A DNA stretch of 35,831 bases from a virus. The notes under the pieces are model-generated. The model made no database searches. It was given only the letters and a program-made list of their open reading frames with translations, and was not told where the DNA came from. Positions within the stretch are counted from its first letter, which is position 1. The number at the start of each line of letters is the position of its first letter. Below, one piece after another: positions 13,675 to 32,071 of the stretch. Both the position numbers and the translations under genes were made by a program. The stretch lies in IMG/VR virus record IMGVR_UViG_3300045988_034936; one strand, given 5' to 3'.

Positions 13675-14271
13675 GTGGAGCAGAGAGTAATTCAATGTAA
13701 AGAGGCGTTCAAGACTCGTGAAGAGAACGGAAAAAGATATATCGAGGGATACTTCTCGGTTTTTAACCAGCCTTATGAAGTCTTTCCGGGGTGGATTGAG
13801 GAAATTGCACCGGGAGCATTTTCGAGGACATTGCGAGAAGGGAAAGATGTAAAAGTCCTGTGGAATCACAATTCAGATATCGTGCTTGGATCAACGACTA
13901 ACAGGACAGCATCACTAAGAGAAGATGAAGTCGGACTGTATGGAAGCGACGAAATCAACGAGGAAGATCAGGAAGCTAAAAATGGATATGCAAGAGTGGC
14001 CCGTGGAGATGTGAGAGGCTGCTCTTTTGGTTTTGACATCAAATCTATGGAGGAAAGCTGGGACGATGACGGGACATACCGGACAAGGATCACGGACGTT
14101 GATCTCTACGAAGTAAGCCCTTGCACATTCCCGGCCTACGCACAGACCAGCATATCGGCCAGGGCGAAAGACAGCCTGGAAGATGCGAAGAGACGTTTTG
14201 AACAGGCGAAGGAACAGAAAAGAAATGATTGGAGGGATTCTATGAGATCCCGACTGAAAGGAGAAAAGTAA
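13675..14271 (+). CDS. Prohead maturation protease (HK97/U35 family)
   Basis: GYFSVFNQPYEV...VLWNHNSDIVLGST...GDVRGCSFGF pattern, located between portal and capsid genes. GTG start. Confidence 0.85.
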   Translation: MEQRVIQCKEAFKTREENGKRYIEGYFSVFNQPYEVFPGWIEEIAPGAFSRTLREGKDVKVLWNHNSDIVLGSTTNRTASLREDEVGLYGSDEINEEDQEAKNGYARVARGDVRGCSFGFDIKSMEESWDDDGTYRTRITDVDLYEVSPCTFPAYAQTSISARAKDSLEDAKRRFEQAKEQKRNDWRDSMRSRLKGEK

Positions 14272-15986
14272 TGGCATTAAAGCAGATCATGCTTAGAAAG
14301 CAGATTGAAAGAAAGAAAACAGAGCTTGAGGGGCTGCGTGAGAAAGATGCTGATTTCCAGACCAGGGAAGAGGAGCTGGAAAAGGCGATTGATGAAGCGC
14401 AGACAGACGAAGAGCAGAAAACCGTAGAGGATGAAGTAGAAAAATTCGACGGCGAAAAAACTGCTCATGATGAAGCGAAAGCAAAGCTTGAATCAGAAAT
14501 CGGAGATCTTGAGGCAGAGCTCGAGGCTGCCGAAGTTGATCCTCCTGCTCCGGATCAGAGAACTATCAAAACAGAAAAGAAAGTGAGGACGAATATCAGA
14601 ATGAACACAGCAGAAATGAAAATCAGAAGCCTGCCGATGAATGTTAGAGCGTTTGACTCTCTTCCGATGGAAACCAGGGAAGCGATTGTGCAGCGTGACG
14701 ATGTTAAAACATTCCTGGCGCAGTTAAGAAGCATGAAAGGACAGTCCAGGGCAATCCAGGGTGGTGAACTGGAAATTCCGGTAGTATTCCTGGAGCTGAT
14801 CTCCGAAAACATGTACCGGTACAGCAAACTGCTGAATCGTGTGCGTGTAAGAAATGTACCGGGCGAAGCTAGACAGACGATTGCCGGAACTGTACCGGAG
14901 GCAATCTGGACAGAAATGTGCGGTGCTATCAACGAGCTTACTTTCGTGTTTAATCAGGTCACTCTTGATGGGTATAAGGTGGCTGGCTATGTTCCGGTAT
15001 GCAATTCCCTGTTGGAAGATACAGTGAGCAATCTTGACCTTGCCGGATGGATCGTGGAAATGCTGTCTGAATCCATCGGACTTGCAGAGGATAAGGCAAT
15101 TCTGTACGGTAAAGGATCTTCTGCGCACATGCCTCTTGGTATCGTGACTAGGCTGGCGCAGAAAACCAAGCCGTCTGATTATCCGGCAAACGCTCCGGCA
15201 TGGGTAGACCTTCACACCACGAACATCCAGAAAATCAACGGAGACTCTATGACAGGAGCCGAGTTCTGGAGCGCGCTGACTATCGCCGCAGGCAACACCT
15301 TCACGAAATATAACCGTGGAGAAATGTTCTGGGCTATGAACTCTAAGACCTACGCAAAACTGCGCTCTAAGCTTATCACATTTACCGCTACCGGTGATGT
15401 GGTGGCAAACCTGTTTGGAACGCTCCCGATCATCAATGGAGACATTGACATTCTGGAGTTCATTCCGGATGGGGATATCATCGGTGGGTATGGTGATCTG
15501 TATCTGTGGGCTGACAGACGGTCTATGGTGATCGACCAGTCCGAACATGTACAGTTCATCCAGGACAACACCGTATTCCGTGGAAAGGCTCGTGCAGACG
15601 GTGCTCCAATCATCCCGGGTGCATTTGTGGCGATCAACATTAATAACAAGGAAGTTACAACTGTGATGGCCTTTGCGGCTGATACTGCGAATGACGCTGA
15701 TCTGATTGCTCTTGCAGTTGGTTCCGAGACTATGGCTCCATCTTCCTTTGATCCGGATACGCTGACTTATACTATCGCTTCCGCAACACAGGCAAGTGAT
15801 AAGATTGAGGCTACACCGGCACAGGCTGACGCAGAAGTAGCGATCAGCTACAACGGAAAGAATGTCAGAAACGGAGGATCTGTAACATGGCTTGCAGACA
15901 GTGCACCGCATCCGCTGACCGTTACCGTTAAGAAAGGCAATGCTGTAAAAGTGTACACCGTAAATGTGACAAAAGCCGGTGACTAA
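14271..15986 (+). CDS. Major capsid protein (HK97 fold) with an N-terminal coiled-coil delta/scaffold domain and a C-terminal Ig/cadherin-like extension
   Basis: Start trimmed to ATG 14271 (aaaggagaaaag RBS). The N-terminal ~100 aa are charged coiled coil. The core resembles HK97-family MCPs. The last ~110 aa (DLIALAVGSETMAPSSFDPDTLTYTI...VKVYTVNVTKAG) look like a beta-sandwich decoration domain. Confidence 0.85.
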   Translation: MALKQIMLRKQIERKKTELEGLREKDADFQTREEELEKAIDEAQTDEEQKTVEDEVEKFDGEKTAHDEAKAKLESEIGDLEAELEAAEVDPPAPDQRTIKTEKKVRTNIRMNTAEMKIRSLPMNVRAFDSLPMETREAIVQRDDVKTFLAQLRSMKGQSRAIQGGELEIPVVFLELISENMYRYSKLLNRVRVRNVPGEARQTIAGTVPEAIWTEMCGAINELTFVFNQVTLDGYKVAGYVPVCNSLLEDTVSNLDLAGWIVEMLSESIGLAEDKAILYGKGSSAHMPLGIVTRLAQKTKPSDYPANAPAWVDLHTTNIQKINGDSMTGAEFWSALTIAAGNTFTKYNRGEMFWAMNSKTYAKLRSKLITFTATGDVVANLFGTLPIINGDIDILEFIPDGDIIGGYGDLYLWADRRSMVIDQSEHVQFIQDNTVFRGKARADGAPIIPGAFVAININNKEVTTVMAFAADTANDADLIALAVGSETMAPSSFDPDTLTYTIASATQASDKIEATPAQADAEVAISYNGKNVRNGGSVTWLADSAPHPLTVTVKKGNAVKVYTVNVTKAGD

Positions 15987-21191: not shown

Positions 21192-21883
21192 TGTTTTCGA
21201 CAGAATTTAAAGGTGAAAAGGATGTTGACCATCATGTACTTACGGTAAGAAGACCCAGCATACCGGCTGCCGAGGAAAGAATAGAGGAAATTGAAATACC
21301 TGGCAGAAACGGCGGGCTGACTTCCAGTTCCGGGCTATACGATAATGTTGTAATCCCGGTAGAATTTAATTTTATGACTGCACCGTCGAATTGGAACGAA
21401 GTATATCGCAATGTCAAAAAATGGCTCTCCGGAAGCGGAGAGCTTAAATTTTCGGACGATGCTGGAATGTTTTATAAGGCGTTATTTTGCAGAATCACAG
21501 ATTCAGAGCGTACAAGCCGTAGACTTGGGAATCTAACGGCAGAGTTTACGTGTGATCCATTTTGTTACTATGAATACGGGAAGCGTGAGATTGCGATGGA
21601 ATCTCCGCTGTACAATCCCGGGTGGACATGCGAGCCAGTATATCGGATCACCGGAGAAGGAAACTGTACACTGACCGTGAATGGATATGAATTTACGGCG
21701 AATGTGGGACAGGAGATCATCATAGACACAAACCGGCAGATATCCTATAAGAATGACGGACAGATGCTGAATACGGATGTTACTGGGGATTATGCAGATC
21801 TGTGGCTCAAACCGGGAGATAATACGATTTCCGTAACATCCGGGTTTTCGGTTAATATAACGCCAATGTGGAGGGAATTATGA
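21191..21883 (+). CDS. Distal tail protein (Dit)
   Basis: 230-aa ORF directly after the tape measure gene (TAATG overlap), typical siphovirus position. Confidence 0.7.
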   Translation: MFSTEFKGEKDVDHHVLTVRRPSIPAAEERIEEIEIPGRNGGLTSSSGLYDNVVIPVEFNFMTAPSNWNEVYRNVKKWLSGSGELKFSDDAGMFYKALFCRITDSERTSRRLGNLTAEFTCDPFCYYEYGKREIAMESPLYNPGWTCEPVYRITGEGNCTLTVNGYEFTANVGQEIIIDTNRQISYKNDGQMLNTDVTGDYADLWLKPGDNTISVTSGFSVNITPMWREL

Positions 21884-23931
21884 TACAAGTCTACAAACCG
21901 GACAATACAAACTATGACAAAAACGGAGACATGACATTAATCCCAACGGTATGCGAATTATCAAGCGAGATCAACGGAGCGTGGGAGCTTACGATGAGCC
22001 ACCCCATAGATGACGAAGGGCGTTGGAAATACCTATCAGAAGAGGCGGTTATTTCAGCTCCGACGTTCCAGGGCGAACATCAGCTTTTTCGGGTTGACAA
22101 ATGTGTAAAGACGGACTCATCCGTTGAGGTTACAGCGTATCCTATTTTCTTTGACAGTGCGGATGATTGTTTTTTGATGGATGTACGCCCGACCAAGAAA
22201 AATGGGCAGGAAGCTCTCGATATCATGACAGAAGGAAGTAAATACAACGGACAGTCAGATATCACAACGGGCGGTACTGCGTACTTTGCGCGACGGAATC
22301 TCATGGATGCGATCAACGGAGAGAACGAACCTACATTTATCCAAATCTGGGGCGGCGAAATCTTATATGACAATCATACCGTCGTTATAAATGAACGTAT
22401 CGGGTCAAATAAGGGACTTGAAATCAGATACGGAAAGAACATGGAGTCCGTATCAAGCACGGTAGACATGTCTAACGTCGTTACTAGAATCGTACCTGTG
22501 GCTTACAATGGCAGGACGATGAGCGGTAATACTCCGTGGGTAGACAGTGAAAATATAAGTAAGTACGCAAAGATCTACACACGGGAGGTTAAATTTGAGG
22601 ACGTGAAGCTGGCGGAAGATGCCAATGAGGATGATGCGGAGAATGGCATTATTGTGTGCCAGGATCAGGAAGCTCTTGATGAAGCCCTTACGCAAAAGTG
22701 TGAAGACATGTATGCCGCAGGCGCAGACCTCCCGACTGTGAGCATTGATGTCAACATGATTGATCTACAGTATACAGATCAGTATAAGGACTTTGCCGAC
22801 CTGGTAAGTGTGGGACTTGGTGACGATGTGGCGTGCTACAACTATAAGCTTGGTATCACAACGACGGCGAGAGTCATCAAACTAACGTGGGATTGCATCC
22901 GGAACAGATCGGCAGGTATGACGCTTGGAGATTATGAATACAACTACTTCTCGGAGTTAACATCCAGCTTGCAGGCTATTCAGAAAGTGATCGGCCCGGG
23001 AGATACGCTGGTAGCGGAAAGAGTAAGCGGAGTACTTAACGCTATCAACACACAGCTTCGGTATCAGAAAAATATAGCGCAAAAGCAGGATGTAAGAGCC
23101 ATTTTATTTGAAGATACAGACCCGGACTCTCCTACTTATGGGGCGATGTGTTTAGGGACTCAAGGCTTTCAGATATCCGACACACGAACGGCAGACGGGG
23201 AAGACTGGGACTGGACGACAGCTTTTACAGCCAAAGGCGGTTATGCAAATGTATTGGTAGCTGGTTTGATTTCTGATAAAACCGGGCGTTCTTACTGGAA
23301 CCTAGATACGGGCGACATCGTGATAAACGGGAAAATCGTATCGTCAAGCGCGGAAATAACCGGCGGAAGTTTTAATGTACAGAGCAACAGCCAATATAAT
23401 TCTGTAATTTCTCTTCGAGCAGAGCAGCATGGATACGAATACCGGACAAACATGCAGCCGATACAGCTTGAAAGTATGGACGATAGACAAAAATACATAT
23501 CATGGGTTTCCGGTGCACTTGGCTTGGCGTGTGGAACATATAACGGAACGATAGACAACCCCGGTACGATTACGGCAAAATCCAGCATCGTACAAGGGTT
23601 TATACAGTGCGAAAAGTTGACGCAAACGTCCGATGCTAGGTTGAAAAAAGAAATAAAAGAAATCCCGGAAGAACTGGCAGAAAAGATTGTTTTATCAGCA
23701 AAGCCAAAAAGCTTTAAGTTCAAGGACGGGGATAAAACAATACTTGGATTTATTGCTCAAGATGTTAGGGAAATCCTAGGGGAAGATTACAATTTGTTCA
23801 TAGAAGAAAGCGAAAAGGATGGAATTAAAAACATGATGTCAGTATCCTACTTGGATTTTATAGCACCTATCGTGAAAATGATTCAAGTGCATGATTCAGA
23901 AATTAAAAAAATAAAGGAGGTGCTACGGTGA
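21880..23931 (+). CDS. Tail-associated protein (Tal-like) with a C-terminal S74-type intramolecular chaperone domain
   Basis: Start trimmed to ATG 21880 (GGAGG 5 nt upstream, ATGA overlap). The C-terminus ...TQTSDARLKKEIKEIPE...ILGFIAQDVREILGEDY...SVSYLDFIAPIVKMIQ matches the endosialidase-chaperone (peptidase S74) SD-x-R-x-K signature. Confidence 0.75.
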   Translation: MIQVYKPDNTNYDKNGDMTLIPTVCELSSEINGAWELTMSHPIDDEGRWKYLSEEAVISAPTFQGEHQLFRVDKCVKTDSSVEVTAYPIFFDSADDCFLMDVRPTKKNGQEALDIMTEGSKYNGQSDITTGGTAYFARRNLMDAINGENEPTFIQIWGGEILYDNHTVVINERIGSNKGLEIRYGKNMESVSSTVDMSNVVTRIVPVAYNGRTMSGNTPWVDSENISKYAKIYTREVKFEDVKLAEDANEDDAENGIIVCQDQEALDEALTQKCEDMYAAGADLPTVSIDVNMIDLQYTDQYKDFADLVSVGLGDDVACYNYKLGITTTARVIKLTWDCIRNRSAGMTLGDYEYNYFSELTSSLQAIQKVIGPGDTLVAERVSGVLNAINTQLRYQKNIAQKQDVRAILFEDTDPDSPTYGAMCLGTQGFQISDTRTADGEDWDWTTAFTAKGGYANVLVAGLISDKTGRSYWNLDTGDIVINGKIVSSSAEITGGSFNVQSNSQYNSVISLRAEQHGYEYRTNMQPIQLESMDDRQKYISWVSGALGLACGTYNGTIDNPGTITAKSSIVQGFIQCEKLTQTSDARLKKEIKEIPEELAEKIVLSAKPKSFKFKDGDKTILGFIAQDVREILGEDYNLFIEESEKDGIKNMMSVSYLDFIAPIVKMIQVHDSEIKKIKEVLR

Positions 23932-25299: not shown

Positions 25300-26079
25300 A
25301 TGCCATATATATCTAAAATAGAAGCAAATATCAACGGAGAAAAACAGGACATACCTGTTTTTTCACCCGGTTTTGCCAACGCCGGTTCACACAATAGCAT
25401 CTTCCGAGGACAGAACCTAGGTTCATATGTTACATCTGAACAGTGGACAGCTATTCAAAATGGGACATTCGATGATTTATACATCGGAGATTATTGGGTT
25501 ATTGACGGCATAAATTGGAGGATTGCAGCTTTTGATTATTACTATAACTGTGGCGATTCAGCATTTACAAAACACCATGCAGTAATAGTACCTGACACAT
25601 CGTTGTATTCGCACAATATGAACGACACGAATGTCACTACTGGAGGATATGTGGGATCGAAGATGTACACAGAAGGGTTAGGACAGGCGAAAACACAAAT
25701 ACAAAATACATTCGGAGTATCACATGTCCTGACACATAGATTGCTTTTAACCAACGCAACTACGAACGGGTACGCATCCGGAGGAGCATGGTTTGACAGC
25801 GTAGTAGATCTCATGTGCGAAACAATGGTATATGGATCCATGATAATGTCGCCGATGAATAATGGAACGAACATTCCTTACAACTACCGCATTGAAAAAG
25901 GACAGCTGCCTTTATTCCAAATGGCGCCACAATATACATTCAACCGAAGCGGAACGTATTGGCTAAGAGACGTTGTATCCGCCTCGTATTTCGCGAATGT
26001 GTACGGCAACGGCATTGCGTACGGCGACTCCGCGTCTAATGCTTTTGGCGTTCGCCCGGCTTTCTGTATCGGAATCTAA
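25300..26079 (+). CDS. DGR target protein: putative receptor-binding tail fibre protein with a C-terminal variable region
   Basis: taggaggt RBS. It is the last gene of the tail module. Its C-terminal 27 codons before the last 7 (25978-26058) form the VR copy of the downstream TR. The ...YWLRDVV...FGVRPAF ending is typical of C-type-lectin-fold DGR targets. Confidence 0.85.
   Translation: MPYISKIEANINGEKQDIPVFSPGFANAGSHNSIFRGQNLGSYVTSEQWTAIQNGTFDDLYIGDYWVIDGINWRIAAFDYYYNCGDSAFTKHHAVIVPDTSLYSHNMNDTNVTTGGYVGSKMYTEGLGQAKTQIQNTFGVSHVLTHRLLLTNATTNGYASGGAWFDSVVDLMCETMVYGSMIMSPMNNGTNIPYNYRIEKGQLPLFQMAPQYTFNRSGTYWLRDVVSASYFANVYGNGIAYGDSASNAFGVRPAFCIGI
25978..26058 (+). repeat. DGR variable repeat (VR)
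   Basis: Gap-free 81-nt alignment to 26673-26753 gives 67 identities and 14 mismatches. Every mismatch lies opposite a TR adenine. Confidence 0.9.
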
Positions 26080-26081
26080 AA

Positions 26082-26106
26082 TCTCGCCCTCCTTGTGAGG
26101 GCGAGA
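26082..26106 (+). promoter_or_regulatory. GC-rich hairpin 3' of VR (candidate DGR target-recognition hairpin/cruciform)
   Basis: Perfect 10-bp stem tctcgccctc (26082-26091) / gagggcgaga (26097-26106) with a 5-nt loop cttgt. It lies 24 nt after the VR homology ends and has no following T-run. Confidence 0.6.
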
Positions 26107-26122
26107 GAGGAAAGGGAAATAA

Positions 26123-26650
26123 ATGTCAGTAGTTAAGAGAAAAAGGAAAGAGTCACCATTTGAAGTATTTCACCATCTCACCAAAATGCGACAGAATATT
26201 ACCGATTTATTGTTAAGAGACTTTGGATACAGCAATGAAAAGTTTCAGAAAAAAATAGAGAGGAGGTACGGAGGGAAGAAATTTGAAGAGCTGACCGACG
26301 TACAAAAGAAGGATTATGAGCGGCAAAAGGAGAGGAATGTGGCATTTGATGAATGGTATATTGCCAAAGAACGGGAAACGGTAATAGAATGCATCCATTC
26401 GATCAATGAACATGTATATGTAGCGAATAGCATATATCCAACCTGCCAAGAAGAGCTAACAGAGAGAAGATTACATCAGGACATTGCAATCGGGCAATGT
26501 GCAAGGCTCGCACAGGAACTGCAGTATGCAATAGAAACGTTGCCAGTAAATGTGAACACATATCTTAATATCGCACACGACATCGAAAAGGAAATCGCAC
26601 TTCTGAAGGGGTGGAGAAAATCAGACAATAAGTTCAAGAAGAATTTTTAA
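26123..26650 (+). CDS. avd: Accessory variability determinant (Avd)-like helical protein
   Basis: Located between the target gene and TR/RT. Predicted all-helical, basic. A C-terminal half such as HVYVANSIYP...RRLHQDIAIGQCARLAQELQYAIE...LLKGWRKSD fits the four-helix-bundle Avd family. At 175 aa it is longer than bAvd. Confidence 0.65.
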   Translation: MSVVKRKRKESPFEVFHHLTKMRQNITDLLLRDFGYSNEKFQKKIERRYGGKKFEELTDVQKKDYERQKERNVAFDEWYIAKERETVIECIHSINEHVYVANSIYPTCQEELTERRLHQDIAIGQCARLAQELQYAIETLPVNVNTYLNIAHDIEKEIALLKGWRKSDNKFKKNF

Positions 26651-26672: not shown

Positions 26673-26753
26673 ACCGCCTCGAATTTCGCGAATGTGAACA
26701 ACAACGGCAATGCGAACAACAACAACGCGTCTAATGCTAATGGCGTTCGCCCG
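26673..26753 (+). repeat. DGR template repeat (TR)
   Basis: 81 nt in the avd-RT intergenic gap. Read in the VR frame it encodes T A S N F A N V N N N G N A N N N N A S N A N G V R P. It has 12 AAY codons and 25 adenines, and ends in the GC-rich ggcgttcgcccg. Confidence 0.9.
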
Positions 26754-26819
26754 ATTTCGACTGTGCGATTAAAAGACACTCGATCGTTTCGCACAGAAGA
26801 AAGGAGAGATTGTCCCTCT

Positions 26820-28025
26820 ATGGAGAACATAGTAAATACACGGCATGATGCCGGTGGTTACGACCAGTCCGGCTATAAACATGCCATTTATGACGGAAAT
26901 GTACTATATGAAGCATTCCTTAAGGCAAAGAAAGGAAGTGATTGGAAAGGAAGTGTACAGCGATTTGAAATGGACTATCTTTTCGGACTGGCAAAAATAC
27001 AGAAAGAACTACAGGAAGAAACATACCGATTTAAAGAAGGGAGTTCATTTATTATTAGGGAAAGAGGGAAGGTTAGAAAGATAACGGGAGAGAAGATAGA
27101 TGATAGAATCGTGAAACATGCGCTTTGCGACGAGGTGATTAATCCCGCAATCAAGAAATACCTAATACATGACAATGGAGCAAGCCAGGTTGGAAAAGGA
27201 ATCGAATTTACCCGTCGAAGACTTGAACAGCATTTACATCAGTATTATAGGAGAAATGGGACAAATAAAGGATATATACTAATTATGGATTTTTCAAAAT
27301 ACTACGATAATATCAGACACGATGTTGTTAGAGATATGATGAAAAAGTATATAGATAACCCTTATGCTTTACGACTCATTGATAAGGTGCTTGAAAGTGA
27401 AAGGGTGGATGTGTCCTACATGACAGAGGAAGAGTACGGTTCCTGCATGGAAGATGTCTTTGATTCATTGAAATACTTCGACATTCAATCGGAAAAACTC
27501 ACGGGGAAAAAGTACATGGAAAAACATATGAATATCGGAAATCAGGTTGCACAAAGCGTTGGGATCAGCTACAGAATTCCGTTTGATAACTTTTTTAAAA
27601 TTGTAAAAGGATTTGATTCATATGCAGCATATATGGATGACAGCTATGCGATACATGAAAGCAAGGAATTTCTTGAAGAAGCGCTGGGAGAGTCGATAGA
27701 TGTAGCAAAGAGCATTGGTATAACTGTAAATTTAAAAAAGACTCGAATATGTAAGTTATCTGACATGTGGAGGTTTCTACAAATACAGTATTCTTTAACG
27801 GACACAGGAAGAGTCATACACAAAATTAATCCAAAGAGACTGACAGTTATGCGACGTAAAATGAAGAAACTATCTGGATGTTTAACGGAGAAAGAATTTT
27901 CCAACCTTTATCATTCATGGTTCAATAGCTATTCAAGATATATGAGCAAGAAGCAACGCGAAAACATGGATATACTTTATGAAGATATAAAGACAAAGCA
28001 CTACAAAAGGAGGAGAACATGTTAG
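26820..28025 (+). CDS. DGR-type reverse transcriptase
   Basis: Start trimmed to ATG 26820 (aaggagag RBS at 26801-26808). RT motifs present: ILIMDFSKYYDNIRHD (motif A type D-x-x-K-Y-x-D-x-I-x-H), IGNQVAQ (DGR-like [ILV]GxxxSQ variant of QGxxxSP), YAAYMDDSYAI (YMDD). Confidence 0.9.
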   Translation: MENIVNTRHDAGGYDQSGYKHAIYDGNVLYEAFLKAKKGSDWKGSVQRFEMDYLFGLAKIQKELQEETYRFKEGSSFIIRERGKVRKITGEKIDDRIVKHALCDEVINPAIKKYLIHDNGASQVGKGIEFTRRRLEQHLHQYYRRNGTNKGYILIMDFSKYYDNIRHDVVRDMMKKYIDNPYALRLIDKVLESERVDVSYMTEEEYGSCMEDVFDSLKYFDIQSEKLTGKKYMEKHMNIGNQVAQSVGISYRIPFDNFFKIVKGFDSYAAYMDDSYAIHESKEFLEEALGESIDVAKSIGITVNLKKTRICKLSDMWRFLQIQYSLTDTGRVIHKINPKRLTVMRRKMKKLSGCLTEKEFSNLYHSWFNSYSRYMSKKQRENMDILYEDIKTKHYKRRRTC

Positions 28026-28630
28026 CAAAATTGATAGGACAAAGTCTGTATTTTCCACCGGAAGGAGCAGATGAAGGAGAATTAATTGCAGATGGATATA
28101 AGGAATATGAACAGAATGACCCGCCAGAACATCTACCAAAAACACAACAGGCAGTATGCAAGTTGGAGGACACAGGAAATAAGATCGTTATGTCATGGGA
28201 TATTATACCTGCCCAGCCAAATCCAGCGGAAGCCATGCAGGAAATCCAGATACAGGCTATTTTATCACAAGTAACACAGAGCGAAGATAAGACTCTTGGT
28301 ATCAAATGCATGGAACTATTCCAAATGTATGTACAGGAAAAGCAGCACGAAGCAGGAGAAGTTGCTCTTCACCCGGATACCGGATACCCTAAAGAGTGTA
28401 TGACGAACTATGATGGGGCGATACAGACAGACTGGACGATAGACACAGCTTCGCTTTGGAAGCCGTGGCACAGTACAGATCCGGACTACGCACTTCCATT
28501 TGAACATCCAACCGGGGCGCACGACATATATAAAGCAGGCGAGTATATGATATGGACAGATGGGGATATAAAGAAGTGCATACAGGACACAAGCTATAGC
28601 CCGGACGAATATGCGCAGGCGTGGGAATAG
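28019..28630 (+). CDS. Hypothetical tail-associated protein with a CBM5/12-like C-terminal motif
   Basis: aaggagga RBS; overlaps the RT stop by 7 nt. The C-terminus WKPWHSTDPDY...YKAGEYMIWTDGDIKKCIQDTSYSPDEYAQAWE resembles the carbohydrate-binding CBM5/12 aromatic pattern. Confidence 0.5.
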   Translation: MLAKLIGQSLYFPPEGADEGELIADGYKEYEQNDPPEHLPKTQQAVCKLEDTGNKIVMSWDIIPAQPNPAEAMQEIQIQAILSQVTQSEDKTLGIKCMELFQMYVQEKQHEAGEVALHPDTGYPKECMTNYDGAIQTDWTIDTASLWKPWHSTDPDYALPFEHPTGAHDIYKAGEYMIWTDGDIKKCIQDTSYSPDEYAQAWE

Positions 28631-28646
28631 AAAGGAAAGTGAGGAC

Positions 28647-29120
28647 ATGATGAAAATGAATTACGCAGAACCAATTATAAACGGGTATAACGCAATCACA
28701 GGGACCATTGTTGCTGTATTATCCTATATATTAGGAGAGCACTGGTTTTTGTTTGTGGCATTTTTGTTTCTAAATGTGACAGATTGGCTTACCGGATGGA
28801 TGAAAAGCCGCATGGCTGGAAGAGAAAATTCTATGGCCGGGTGGAAAGGCGTGCTTAAGAAGCTAGGATACTGGTTAATGATTATGGTAGCATTTGGAGC
28901 CAGCGCGGTATTTATTGAAATCGGAAAGGCGATTGGAATTGACCTGGGTATTACGACACTGCTTGGCTGGTTTGTTCTTGCAAGCTTGATAATCAACGAG
29001 ATCCGTTCCATTGTAGAAAATTTTGTGGAAGCAGGTTACAACGTGCCAGCAGTTTTAGTGAATGGACTAGAGGTAGCAGATAAAGTAGTGAATAAAGAGG
29101 AGCATTCGGGGGACGCATGA
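28647..29120 (+). CDS. Holin (Phage_holin_4 / TcdE-like)
   Basis: Start trimmed to ATG 28647 (ggaaagtgagga upstream). Has tandem Met codons and three or four TM segments. WLTGW...GWKGVLKKLGYWLMIMVAF...INEIRSIVEN is typical of the family. Confidence 0.8.
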   Translation: MMKMNYAEPIINGYNAITGTIVAVLSYILGEHWFLFVAFLFLNVTDWLTGWMKSRMAGRENSMAGWKGVLKKLGYWLMIMVAFGASAVFIEIGKAIGIDLGITTLLGWFVLASLIINEIRSIVENFVEAGYNVPAVLVNGLEVADKVVNKEEHSGDA

Positions 29121-29136
29121 CAGCGTCCTCTTTTTT
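29109..29136 (+). terminator. Terminator-like hairpin plus T6 at the holin/endolysin junction (possible attenuator)
   Basis: 8-bp stem with one G.U pair, ggggacgc (29109-29116) / gcgtcctc (29123-29130). The 6-nt loop contains the holin stop. It is followed by tttttt (29131-29136) and then the endolysin AGGAGG. Confidence 0.4.
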
Positions 29137-29149
29137 AGGAGGAAAACTT

Positions 29150-30604
29150 ATGAGCATGAATGGAATTGATATCAGCAACCACCAGGCAGGACTTAATCTT
29201 GCAAAAGTGCCTTGCGACTTTGTGATCTGCAAGGCGACGGAAGGAACCGGATTTGTAGACCGGTATTGCGATGGGTGGATCCAGAAAGCCTTACAGCTGG
29301 GAAAAAAAGTAGGAGTGTATCACTTTGCCACTGGCGGTAGCTCTGGAGTAGCAGAAGCGGATTTCTTCTATAAAAATATAAAGGGCTATGTTGGGAAAGC
29401 AATCCTTGTTCTGGATTGGGAAGCAAATGCAGTGAATAGGGGAGTAGCCTATGCGAAAGCCTTTCTGGATCGGATCTACCAGCTTACAGGTGTGAAGCCG
29501 CTCATTTATATGAGTAATAGTGTAGTCCACGCCTATGATTGGTCCACTGTAGTGAATGCGGATTATGGGTTGTGGAATGCCGGATACTATGCCGGGTATG
29601 AAACGATGGGCTATAATCCAAATGCTCCTCTTTATGGCGGAACAGGAAAATGGAAGGCTTGCGCCCTTTATCAGTACACCTCATCCGGAAGGCTTTCTGG
29701 ATGGAACGGAAATCTTGACCTTAACGTATTTTACGGCGATAAATCAGCATGGGACAAATATGCGGGAACATCTGGTGTAGTTTCATCTGATCCAGACGGA
29801 GAAACAAAATCTGGTGGAACTGTTCAAACACGAAAAAATGATACAGGTGACGTTTCGTATCAAGTCCATTCCAGATGTTATGGTTGGATGGAAAGCCGTT
29901 GTGATGGCGACATGGCAGGAACTACCGGACAGAACAGAAGAATTGAAGCGTTAAAAATCTGGTTAAAAGAAGGAAAGATTAACAGCGTAAAAGTTCATTT
30001 AAAGACTGACGGAGACAAGACATATAACAATCCTACCAAGGATACTGTGATCGGTACTACCGGACAGAAAAAGCGTATAGAAGCCATTACAATCAATTCA
30101 GATGTTCCACTCCGTTATCGTGTGCATCAGAAAACATATGGCTGGACTGGATGGGTAAGCAATGGAAAAACAGCTGGTAGAACAGGACAATCAAAACAGC
30201 TTGAAGCTATTCAGATTTATAAACCTATGTTTTTAGTACGTGGTCACGTTCAGACTAGCGGTTGGAGCAGATACGTTGGAGACAAAGAAACGGTTGGAAC
30301 AACAGGAAAATCAAAGAGATTGGAAGCTTTGCAGTTTGATCCATTGGACGAAGTGATCGAGTGTTCGGCTCATATCCAGGGCGAGGGCTGGGTTCATTAT
30401 GGTGTAATCACAAAAGATACTGTAATTGGAACCGTAGGAGAAGCAGAAAGATTGGAGTGCTTACGGTTTAAGGGCGATTTTGAATTCAGAGTGCATGTAC
30501 AGGGAAGTGGATGGACAGACTGGACAGAAGCGGACGGAGTTGCTACATTAGGAACTACCGGACAAGCGTTAAGAATTGAAGCAATCCAATTCAGAAGAAA
30601 GTAG
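29150..30604 (+). CDS. Endolysin: GH25 muramidase plus six ChW (clostridial hydrophobic W) cell-wall-binding repeats
   Basis: Start trimmed to ATG 29150 (taggagga RBS). N-terminus MNGIDISNHQAGLNLAKVPCDFVICKATEG...VGVYHFA is GH25-like. The C-terminal half has six ~42-aa repeats of the form YxVHxxxxGW...G..GTTGQxxRIEAIxI. Confidence 0.85.
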   Translation: MSMNGIDISNHQAGLNLAKVPCDFVICKATEGTGFVDRYCDGWIQKALQLGKKVGVYHFATGGSSGVAEADFFYKNIKGYVGKAILVLDWEANAVNRGVAYAKAFLDRIYQLTGVKPLIYMSNSVVHAYDWSTVVNADYGLWNAGYYAGYETMGYNPNAPLYGGTGKWKACALYQYTSSGRLSGWNGNLDLNVFYGDKSAWDKYAGTSGVVSSDPDGETKSGGTVQTRKNDTGDVSYQVHSRCYGWMESRCDGDMAGTTGQNRRIEALKIWLKEGKINSVKVHLKTDGDKTYNNPTKDTVIGTTGQKKRIEAITINSDVPLRYRVHQKTYGWTGWVSNGKTAGRTGQSKQLEAIQIYKPMFLVRGHVQTSGWSRYVGDKETVGTTGKSKRLEALQFDPLDEVIECSAHIQGEGWVHYGVITKDTVIGTVGEAERLECLRFKGDFEFRVHVQGSGWTDWTEADGVATLGTTGQALRIEAIQFRRK

Positions 30605-30843: not shown

Positions 30844-30864
30844 TTTGCTAACAATTTGCTAACA
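30844..30864 (+). repeat. 21-bp direct repeat tttgctaacaatttgctaaca, copy 2; overlaps the last codons and stop of the integrase gene
   Basis: Exact match to 30648-30668. On the minus strand it encodes the integrase C-terminus ...LLANC*. Confidence 0.8.
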
Positions 30865-31960
30865 GGTTAATGTTTTTTATTCGGTTGTTTCTCTCTTCTT
30901 TCATCCGTTCTGTTACGTGCATATATACCTCTCTTGTCACTTTGCTATTTGCGTGTCCTAATCTATCCGATATCGTTTCTAAATCAACCCCGGCTTCTGC
31001 CATCAATGCCACATGTGTATGCCGCATAATGTGAGATGTGATTTCTCTTCCCAGTACATTCTTGGCCGTTCGCTTTAAACATTTGTTATATGCATAATAT
31101 TGAACATGATTCCCATTTTCATCACACACAAATAGCCTAGTTCTTACACCGTTTCTCATGCATTCGCTCATAGTGTATGCTTTAATCTTCCGACACAAAT
31201 CTAATAATTCATCTTGCATATATACTTCCCTAGTTGATGTTAACGTTTTAGGTGCCGTGACAATATCGTTTACAATGTCAACCGTCTTATTCACACTTAT
31301 AATGCGATTTTTAAAATCAACGTCTTTTTGCTCAAGCGCGATTGCTTCGCCGATCCTAAGGCCGGATAGAGCAGTAAGAGCCGCCAACATTCGCCACTTT
31401 GTAACGGCTATATTTTGTAGCAGTTTTTTTAATTCGTCACGCTCTAAAAACTTTTCTTTTAGCCGAATAGCTTTCTCTTTGTCCTCATAAGGCGTAAGCT
31501 TATCAATATATCTAATATCGTCTATCAAATCGTTTCTATATCCCCATCTTATCAATGCTTTAAAACGCTTCAGACGTTCGTTAAGTGTTCCGTTTGGTTC
31601 TCCTGTTCTATTGAAACAATCTCTTACATACCCGGCAGTCAACCGATTAGCTATGACATCGCCGCCGAGAATCCTAGCAAGTGCATTTGTGGCAAATATG
31701 TTTCTTGTGTACGTAGATTTTGTTACCGTTCTGCTTTGATCTTCCTGGTAACGTCTTACAAGCTCTGAAATCGTAATATCTTCCGTTCCTGTAAACTTTA
31801 GTTTCTCTTTGATTTTGTCTGCTAGAATTTCTCTTGCCATCTTTTTGTAGTGATTCGTATTCTTTTCCAGTGTAACAGATGCGCTTTTTAATTTTCCAGT
31901 CATGGGATCGTTATACCTTTCGGTAAATACAAATTTTCCATTCCTTTTCACAACATACAT
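30848..31960 (-). CDS. int: Tyrosine recombinase / phage integrase
   Basis: Start trimmed to the Met of MYVVKRNGKF (aaaggagg RBS). The C-terminal catalytic region has ...LSGLRIGEAIAL... (R), HIMRHTHVALM (H-x-x-R) and ...LGHANSKVTREVYMHV (H...Y). Confidence 0.9.
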   Translation of the reverse strand: MYVVKRNGKFVFTERYNDPMTGKLKSASVTLEKNTNHYKKMAREILADKIKEKLKFTGTEDITISELVRRYQEDQSRTVTKSTYTRNIFATNALARILGGDVIANRLTAGYVRDCFNRTGEPNGTLNERLKRFKALIRWGYRNDLIDDIRYIDKLTPYEDKEKAIRLKEKFLERDELKKLLQNIAVTKWRMLAALTALSGLRIGEAIALEQKDVDFKNRIISVNKTVDIVNDIVTAPKTLTSTREVYMQDELLDLCRKIKAYTMSECMRNGVRTRLFVCDENGNHVQYYAYNKCLKRTAKNVLGREITSHIMRHTHVALMAEAGVDLETISDRLGHANSKVTREVYMHVTERMKEERNNRIKNINLLANC

Positions 31961-32071
31961 TGTATCATCCTCCTTTTTGCGTATAAAAATAACAGCCCGT
32001 CTCTTGCAGGCTGTCACCGAAGATGATACAATATATATTGAATTGCGGTGTATCTCTTCGGAGTGCACTTT

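Follow-up and report, generated by a model that had tools for sequence, protein, structure and literature searches.

The question raised by this locus is why an 81-nt stretch of viral DNA (positions 26673 to 26753, plus strand) should carry almost all of its adenines in asparagine codons, and whether such an arrangement belongs to a functional diversity-generating retroelement (DGR), to a peptide-coding gene end or to the relic of a DGR that has fallen silent. The stretch lies within a window of 35,831 nt, by which we mean the whole of the DNA analysed (IMG/VR record IMGVR_UViG_3300045988_034936). We read it, at a probability of roughly 0.93, as the template repeat (TR) of a functional DGR in a prophage of gut Lachnospiraceae. 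The hallmarks of a DGR are present together at this locus, namely an adenine-specific pair of a TR and a variable repeat (VR), an adjoining reverse transcriptase (RT) gene, a VR that lies in frame in a coding target, and a TR that stays constant against a VR that varies. The cassette runs in the order target with C-terminal VR, hairpin, accessory gene, TR, spacer and RT. Set against this reading are two VR changes at non-adenine positions, an RT motif other than IGxxxSQ, an accessory protein with no detectable similarity to Avd, and structure and profile comparisons of the target that brought up no significant PDB match and no likeness to Mtd.

The TR and the VR (25978 to 26058, plus strand) are direct repeats of 81 nt, offset by 695 nt and aligned without a gap; they are the only two copies of the repeat in the window, and a second VR sought within the window was not found. 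The VR encodes residues 227-253 of the target CDS 25300-26079; codon 227 starts with the first base of the VR, as (25978-25300)%3 = 0. In the VR frame the TR reads ACC GCC TCG AAT TTC GCG AAT GTG AAC AAC AAC GGC AAT GCG AAC AAC AAC AAC GCG TCT AAT GCT AAT GGC GTT CGC CCG, exactly as the preliminary description had given it: of its 25 adenines, 24 fall within 12 AAY codons, all of them in codon positions 1 and 2, and the remaining one opens the leading ACC, the other 14 codons being an adenine-free scaffold. Every mismatch between the TR and the VR (14/14) falls at a TR adenine, and nine of the 12 AAY codons are altered in the VR of the window, to Y, Y, G, I, Y, G, D, S and F, the same count and the same residues that had been listed beforehand. 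The hypervariable VR codons (n=12) are 230, 233, 235-237, 239, 241-244, 247 and 249.

The choice of frame is decisive for what such a template may produce. In frame 0, that of the target CDS, no stop can be reached through adenine substitution, and the TR is open in this frame alone; frames 1 and 2 are devoid of AAY codons, and stops are reachable in both. A frame that contradicts the proposed confinement of the adenines to AAY positions 1 and 2 did not arise. Because the mutable adenines sit in these two positions, each event would give a site templated as Asn one of 15 amino acids, with stops out of reach, and because the scaffold codons without adenine (Ala, Ser, Phe, Val, Gly and the terminal GVRP) would be copied faithfully, the fold would be preserved. 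The arithmetic put forward at the outset, of NNY codons that encode 15 amino acids with zero stops and of 15^12 = 1.3e14 protein variants, was reproduced.

Among 200,000 mononucleotide shuffles of the TR, none (0/200,000) placed 24 adenines in in-frame AAY codons, the best shuffle reaching 16. Asn accounts for 44% of the TR codons vs 5.6% in the other phage genes (5,673 codons). The scaffold provides an independent test: none of its 14 four-fold-degenerate codons (Thr, Ala, Ser, Val, Gly, Arg, Pro) ends in A (0/14, P = 1.3e-3), in an AT-rich phage with a GC content of 41.6% where 22-50% of four-fold codons end in A, and 12% in the case of CTN, which is absent among the scaffold codons. The TR is poor in adenine where variation is silent or harmful, and rich in adenine where it is productive.

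The same layout recurs in relatives. In IMG/VR relatives with RTs 54-56% identical to that of the window, the scaffold drifts synonymously (GCG -> GCC, GTG -> GTC, CGC -> CGT) and the 12 AAY positions are kept, and the same retention is found in Acutalibacter phage Fontainebleau and in a lineage whose accessory protein is 63% identical. Across 75 related TRs that are read through by accessory ORFs, Asn is preserved in 90% or more of the sequences at all of the 12 sites but one; at this exception, the eighth site, 35 have Tyr and 32 have Asn. The Asn-codon layout is real and under selection, and the word codon-optimised, used at first sight of the window alone, proved apt, given that the AAY positions are kept in relatives with RTs 42-55% identical despite the synonymous drift of the scaffold. 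As a separate observation, two IMG/VR relatives (L008:4951-5270 and L011:8125-8440) carry a second, unrelated TR/VR-like pair, with repeats of 113 nt lying 203 nt apart and 21-25 adenine-specific mismatches, a sign that these phages may have another DGR or a further target.

Selection on the layout does not by itself tell on what the selection acts, and here the accessory gene comes into play. This ORF (26123..26650, plus strand) encodes a basic protein of 175 aa (pI 8.9) and occupies the position that avd holds in BPP-1. Avd-type accessory proteins are four-helix bundles, represented in Pfam by PF22296 or PF05635. The accessory protein of the window had no match in Pfam, NCBIfam or PHROGs; its homologues number 1,686 (E <= 0.001), and a single one bears the name 'Avd-like' in nr. 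The protein is strongly conserved, 45 columns being invariant across 43 sequences, and the gene is kept beside the RT in relatives. In hhalign comparisons, the accessory profile reached a probability of 0.2% against the bAvd family (PF22296), both profiles being shallow (Neff ~2), and it gave no match to a single bAvd sequence, again with a shallow profile; because of this shallowness, the negatives are not proof that an Avd is absent.

In 75 of 120 homologues, which form a class of 208-212 aa, the accessory ORF continues across the TR, in the frame of the AAY codons, and ends in a tail like ...SNFANVNNNGNANNNNASNSNGVRPDF, so that the TR becomes visible as protein sequence. Examples are the relatives P0293-P0388, and contig L025 (3501-4136) provides confirmation at the DNA level. 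This gives rise to the thought that the AAY layout stems from selection acting on an Asn-rich peptide that is translated, the TR being, or having recently been, the coding 3' end of the accessory gene; the frequency of the read-through and the fact that frame 0 alone is open through the TR both lend it some substance. In the window and in 10 sister contigs, however, a TAA at 26648-26650 closes the accessory ORF 22 nt before the TR, in another frame, and the 12 AAY codons are still intact. Selection on a peptide would, moreover, leave unexplained both the lack of third-position A in the 14 synonymous scaffold codons and the absence of AAR codons, and the VRs sample exactly the NNY set that AAY codons template. 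We consider the peptide explanation very improbable and hold to the TR as the template of a DGR. A more ambitious proposal takes the accessory protein as a new DGR factor, unrelated to Avd and widespread in gut Bacillota phages, with the TR serving as coding tail and template at once in most lineages and with rare adenine mutagenesis of the TR by its own machinery accounting for eroded TRs (L015, L004-L006, P0308); we find this rather unlikely. The accessory protein and the in-frame TR fusion of the relatives are, in our opinion, the only parts of this locus that are perhaps worth further work.

Natural variation bears on whether the system works. The exact RT protein occurs on at least 21 contigs, and 10 of these, independent of one another (L012-L021), were compared with the window, all from human gut where the metagenome sample labels state a source. 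In the ~1.9 kb made up of the 3' flank of the VR, the accessory gene, the spacer and the RT, each of these 10 contigs departs from the window at 0-2 nt only, and the TR is unchanged from that of the window in nine of them. The VRs, in contrast, differ from that of the window by 11-18 nt in nine contigs, the one of L013 being identical, which makes 10 distinct VRs in the window and the 10 contigs. Comparing each VR with the TR that accompanies it shows substitutions at 148 of 247 A sites (68 to G, 58 to T, 22 to C) and at only 2 of 560 non-A sites, in good agreement with the protection of the scaffold that had been predicted from the adenine pattern. At the protein level, 26 full-length near-identical targets, contained in the two 90%-identity protein clusters around the target of the window, have VRs that are unique in every case (26/26).

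It might be argued that this DGR is an inactive relic, that the VRs differ because alleles fixed long ago have been passed around by phage recombination, and that the TR pattern is a fossil, since activity is known only by inference, the RT motif is deviant (IGNQVAQ) and some TRs of the family are eroding (L015, L004-L006). Fixed alleles hardly account, however, for 10 distinct VRs beside 1.9 kb that differs by 0-2 nt, for a different VR in each of 26 near-identical proteins, or for 148 changes at TR-adenine positions vs 2 elsewhere, and the RT ORF is intact, retains YMDD and is identical in every contig examined that carries it (at least 21). We give scarcely any credence to a relic, and the DGR is apparently active, to judge from the differences between samples.

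The erosion of TRs, beside the unassigned accessory family, is the one other feature here that departs from the ordinary. In L015 (TR 2854-2934) three adenines are lost (AAC -> GGC, AAC -> AGC) and the VR of the same contig has the same G there, as is expected if non-adenine TR bases are copied faithfully in the TR-to-VR direction. Loss of TR adenines, which sometimes affects both adenines of a codon, was also observed in L004-L006 (AAC -> ACC, AAT -> ATT) and in P0308, with its tail NANHNPASNST. Such erosion looks like rare adenine mutagenesis of the TR itself, or like VR-to-TR gene conversion.

What the system has yielded in nature may be read from the same near-identical proteins. All residues at the 12 sites (312/312) belong to the NNY set, with no Lys, Glu, Gln, Met or Trp, and each site displays 6-12 chemically diverse residues, an indirect hint that the variable residues may be exposed at the surface. 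In a set of 121 homologues, the 12 VR columns are the most variable of the C-terminal domain, with a mean entropy of 3.1 vs 0.64 bits elsewhere. From the spectrum at TR adenines (A kept 40%, G 28%, T 23%, C 9%) an entropy of 3.6 bits/site and about 1e13 effective variants are obtained. The theoretical repertoire of 15^12 given in the preliminary description is sound as arithmetic and holds as an upper bound; the realised repertoire is narrower. Cys occurs at 0.05x its expected frequency and Pro is absent from the 12 sites, and Tyr, Gly, Ala and Leu stand 1.6- to 2.8-fold above expectation, ratios that are indicative only, as the expected values were calculated from related data under a simple model in which the sites are independent. 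They indicate that selection removes Cys and Pro.

Both ends of the repeat help to delimit the tract that is transferred. At the 5' end, the VR base aligned with the TR adenine at 26673 is T in nine of the 10 distinct VRs and A in one, never G or C, and residue 227 is Ser in all of the 26 near-identical target proteins. A TR-like ACC at the start of the VR is seen in L017 only, TCC being the conserved VR state; the suggestion that a leading ACC had become TCC thus probably has the direction reversed. Because the VRs show only T or A here and Ser227 is invariant, base 26673 behaves as a homology-boundary base that is not freely mutagenised, and from these sequences the leading TR adenine is best taken to mark the 5' edge of the tract that is transferred, not a 13th variable site. 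A gapped alignment of the 5' end (TGTA-CC vs TGTATCC) was also considered; it is possible but would bring a frameshift on homing, and it fits a tract boundary at 26673.

At the 3' end, the VR and the TR have a GC-rich dodecamer in common (GGCGTTCGCCCG, plus strand, 26047..26058 in the VR and 26742-26753 in the TR), where identity stops and the flanks diverge. The position of GGCGTTCGCCCG matches that of the GC-rich part of an IMH. Just past CGCCCG the TR of the window has a 1-nt deletion relative to the VR, relatives read GATTTC in the TR vs GCTTTC in the VR just past the shared end, and the VR 3' flank (26059-26122) is invariant in 10/10 contigs with the identical RT. Since the TR and the VR differ beyond the dodecamer and the VR flank never varies, the dodecamer appears to mark, in the manner of an IMH, where the transferred tract stops on its 3' side. 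A hairpin follows at 26082..26106 (plus strand), 23 nt past the VR and 2 nt past the target stop; its GC-rich stem is 10 bp long and its loop 5 nt. The 86-nt stretch 26040-26125 folds as DNA with a dG of -14.5 kcal/mol (z = -2.3), and relatives have a GC-rich hairpin of other sequence at the same location. By analogy with known systems, the hairpin at 26082..26106 is probably the target-recognition hairpin, and the combination of an IMH-like GC-rich end with a downstream hairpin, a feature of DGRs, can be recognised in the sequence. As an intrinsic terminator the hairpin was rejected, the T-run being on the minus strand only and no gene converging on it.

The protein that carries the VR is encoded by a gene of 259 aa (25300..26079, plus strand) directly 3' of the tail and tail-fibre genes, and the VR lies in its last 33 residues. 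Residues ~26-257 make up a DUF6273-type module, a putative receptor-binding one, that is common to 3,068 clusters at 50% identity; Pfam DUF6273 (PF19789) itself scores 23.6 bits, vs a cut-off of 23.5, over residues 203-257 only, and the PHROG assignment of the target is tail fibre. A first AF2 run on 121 close homologues (63-96% identical) ended at a pLDDT of 45 and was discarded; a second, with 150 representatives (48-78% identical), attained a pLDDT of 93.8 and a pTM of 0.89. In the resulting model, the VR forms strands 230-234, 240-244 and 248-251 together with the loops between them. Among the predicted viral structures of BFVD, it matched models of gut-phage proteins labelled DUF6273 or receptor-binding protein with a probability of 1.0. 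Profile and predicted structure together identify the target as a DUF6273 module whose C-terminal end carries the VR, and a role in receptor binding is putative.

The likeness to C-type lectins is only weakly supported. Foldseek of the model against the PDB gave nothing at E <= 0.001; the top match was the IgA peptidase of Thomasclavelia ramosa (9qa6), whose N-terminal domain is a DUF6273 (PMC12402451). Next came the C-terminal domain of Legionella Lcl (probability 0.80, 54 columns), and the lectins CD94, MBP and SP-D appeared weakly, with E about 1-6. Mtd and TvpA were absent among the listed PDB matches of the model. An hhalign comparison of the target profile with Mtd gave a probability of 0.55% and no similarity, and PDB sequence searches with the target, whether as a single protein or as two profiles, returned noise only. 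On the side, ORF23 of Lactobacillus phage JCL1032 (NC_019456 23736-24482), annotated as tail fibre, shows 52% identity to the target across 95% of its length, so that the same module is found as a tail fibre in a dairy phage.

The RT (26820..28025, plus strand, 401 aa) matches Pfam RVT_1 (E = 9e-11) and phrog_1423 (E = 5e-54), and its YMDD is intact at 27630-27641. The RTs of DGRs usually carry IGxxxSQ; here the motif, at 27534-27554, reads IGNQVAQ, a Ser-to-Ala variant. The sole PDB sequence match of the RT is BPP-1 bRT (8ub7, E = 1e-6), to which it is 25% identical by BLASTP (E = 2e-12), and relative to bRT it has an insertion of ~45 aa (about 27380-27530) before IGNQVAQ. Both the insertion and the motif variant are shared by relatives (e.g. 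LNIGDQVAQ in L004). A scan of GTDB genomes with the RT brought up one relative only, 43% identical, in a Synergistaceae MAG.

Between the TR and the RT lies a spacer of 66 nt (26754..26819, plus strand), comprising an 8-bp hairpin, in which 26761-26768 is paired with 26789-26796, and the ribosome-binding site of the RT, GAAAGGAGAG. It is identical in 10/10 contigs, and in an alignment with three relatives, four sequences only, 4 pairs are changed on both sides. The AAY frame of the TR continues stop-free into the RT ORF, and the mechanical ORF call starts at a GTG at 26694 (to 28025). A TR-RT fusion from this GTG, as an N-terminal extension of the RT, was rejected, as a strong ribosome-binding site precedes the ATG at 26820, 10/10 gene calls start there, and the frames differ in L002; the in-frame continuity is probably a coincidence.

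By analogy with BPP-1, the TR and the spacer would be transcribed, and the RT, probably with the accessory protein, would copy the TR RNA into cDNA, inserting random bases opposite template adenines. The cDNA would then replace the VR, direction and position being set by the GC-rich 3' end common to both repeats and by the hairpin beyond it. The enzymology, as well as the parts assigned to the accessory protein and the hairpin, is carried over from that system and should be taken as presumptive.

The comparison with the BPP-1 DGR (mtd/avd/TR/brt) is close in architecture. Both systems have the order target, accessory gene, TR, RT; in both a tail protein carries the VR at its C-terminal end, the TR and the VR differ at TR adenines only, and a GC-rich 3' repeat end is followed by a hairpin. 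Under the same computation, the BPP-1 TR has 10 AAC codons with ACG and ATC, which makes 12 variable codons of the same design. The differences lie in the TR length (81 nt here vs 134 nt in BPP-1), in a DUF6273 target whose sequence similarity to BPP-1 Mtd is undetectable (hhalign 0.55%), in an accessory protein of 175 aa whose similarity to bAvd is likewise undetectable with shallow profiles, in an RT with a ~45-aa insertion and IGNQVAQ instead of the IGSLTSQ of bRT, and in the host, here a Gram-positive gut anaerobe, unlike that of BPP-1.

DUF6273 is already a published DGR target domain, reported in the Faecalibacterium prophages Lelie, Roos, Pioen and CP11 (PMC11792537), in phages nd4 and nd12 (PMC10743442) and in Toutatisvirus (bioRxiv 10.1101/2024.10.15.618418). 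These gut Bacillota phages share with the present one the gut setting and the VR at the C-terminus of the DUF6273 domain; their RTs are ~26-31% identical to ours, and the present phage is distinguished by a single target and a Lachnospiraceae host. The closest cultured phage is Acutalibacter phage Fontainebleau (ON453893), which has the same order of target, accessory gene, TR, RT, holin and lysin, with an RT 42% and a target 49% identical, and whose TR encodes SATNFCNVNNNGNANN with AAY at the same positions. It differs in its diverged sequence and its host, and in its record the RT is the one DGR part with an annotation beyond hypothetical protein. In Bacteroides DGRs, the TRs are dominated by AAY codons (about 10.5/TR), which yield 15 amino acids but no stop, and non-synonymous changes make up 99.9% of the outcome (bioRxiv 10.1101/2024.11.15.621889). 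Those DGRs are chromosomal or ICE-borne and diversify pilus-tip adhesins, whereas the one described here acts on a phage tail protein.

The AAY design is, in consequence of this published work, standard DGR biology, and there is nothing new in the rule itself. What the locus adds is a widespread uncultured prophage of human-gut Lachnospiraceae whose DGR, apparently active, varies 12 sites of a DUF6273 tail protein, and with it a natural data set in which an identical RT and TR accompany dozens of distinct VRs. This data set illustrates the published AAY rule. It also shows that the realised repertoire is under selection, being poor in Cys and Pro and rich in Tyr, Gly, Ala and Leu. The importance of the locus goes little beyond annotation.

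The carrier is a temperate siphovirus-like prophage of gut Lachnospiraceae. Its genes in the window include terminase, portal, capsid, a tail endopeptidase (21868-23931) and two fibre-like genes, as well as a holin (28611-29120), a GH25 endolysin with ChW repeats (29117-30604) and an integrase on the minus strand (30848-32068). The host is probably Claveliimonas bilis, because a near-identical target (WP_316269806.1) is encoded in that genome, and the ChW-repeat endolysin fits a clostridial host. No GenBank phage was matched by the cassette in a megablast search, and Rfam matched zero families over the whole window. Two further genes of the phage were noticed in passing. An ORF of 203 aa (28019-28630), without a match in Pfam, PHROGs or NCBIfam, overlaps the RT stop by 7 nt and recurs between RT and holin in 10/10 sister contigs, at lengths of 138-207 aa. 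The major capsid protein (Phage_capsid, 14229-15986) ends in a C-terminal Cadherin-like beta-sandwich domain, which may be a decoration or adhesion module.
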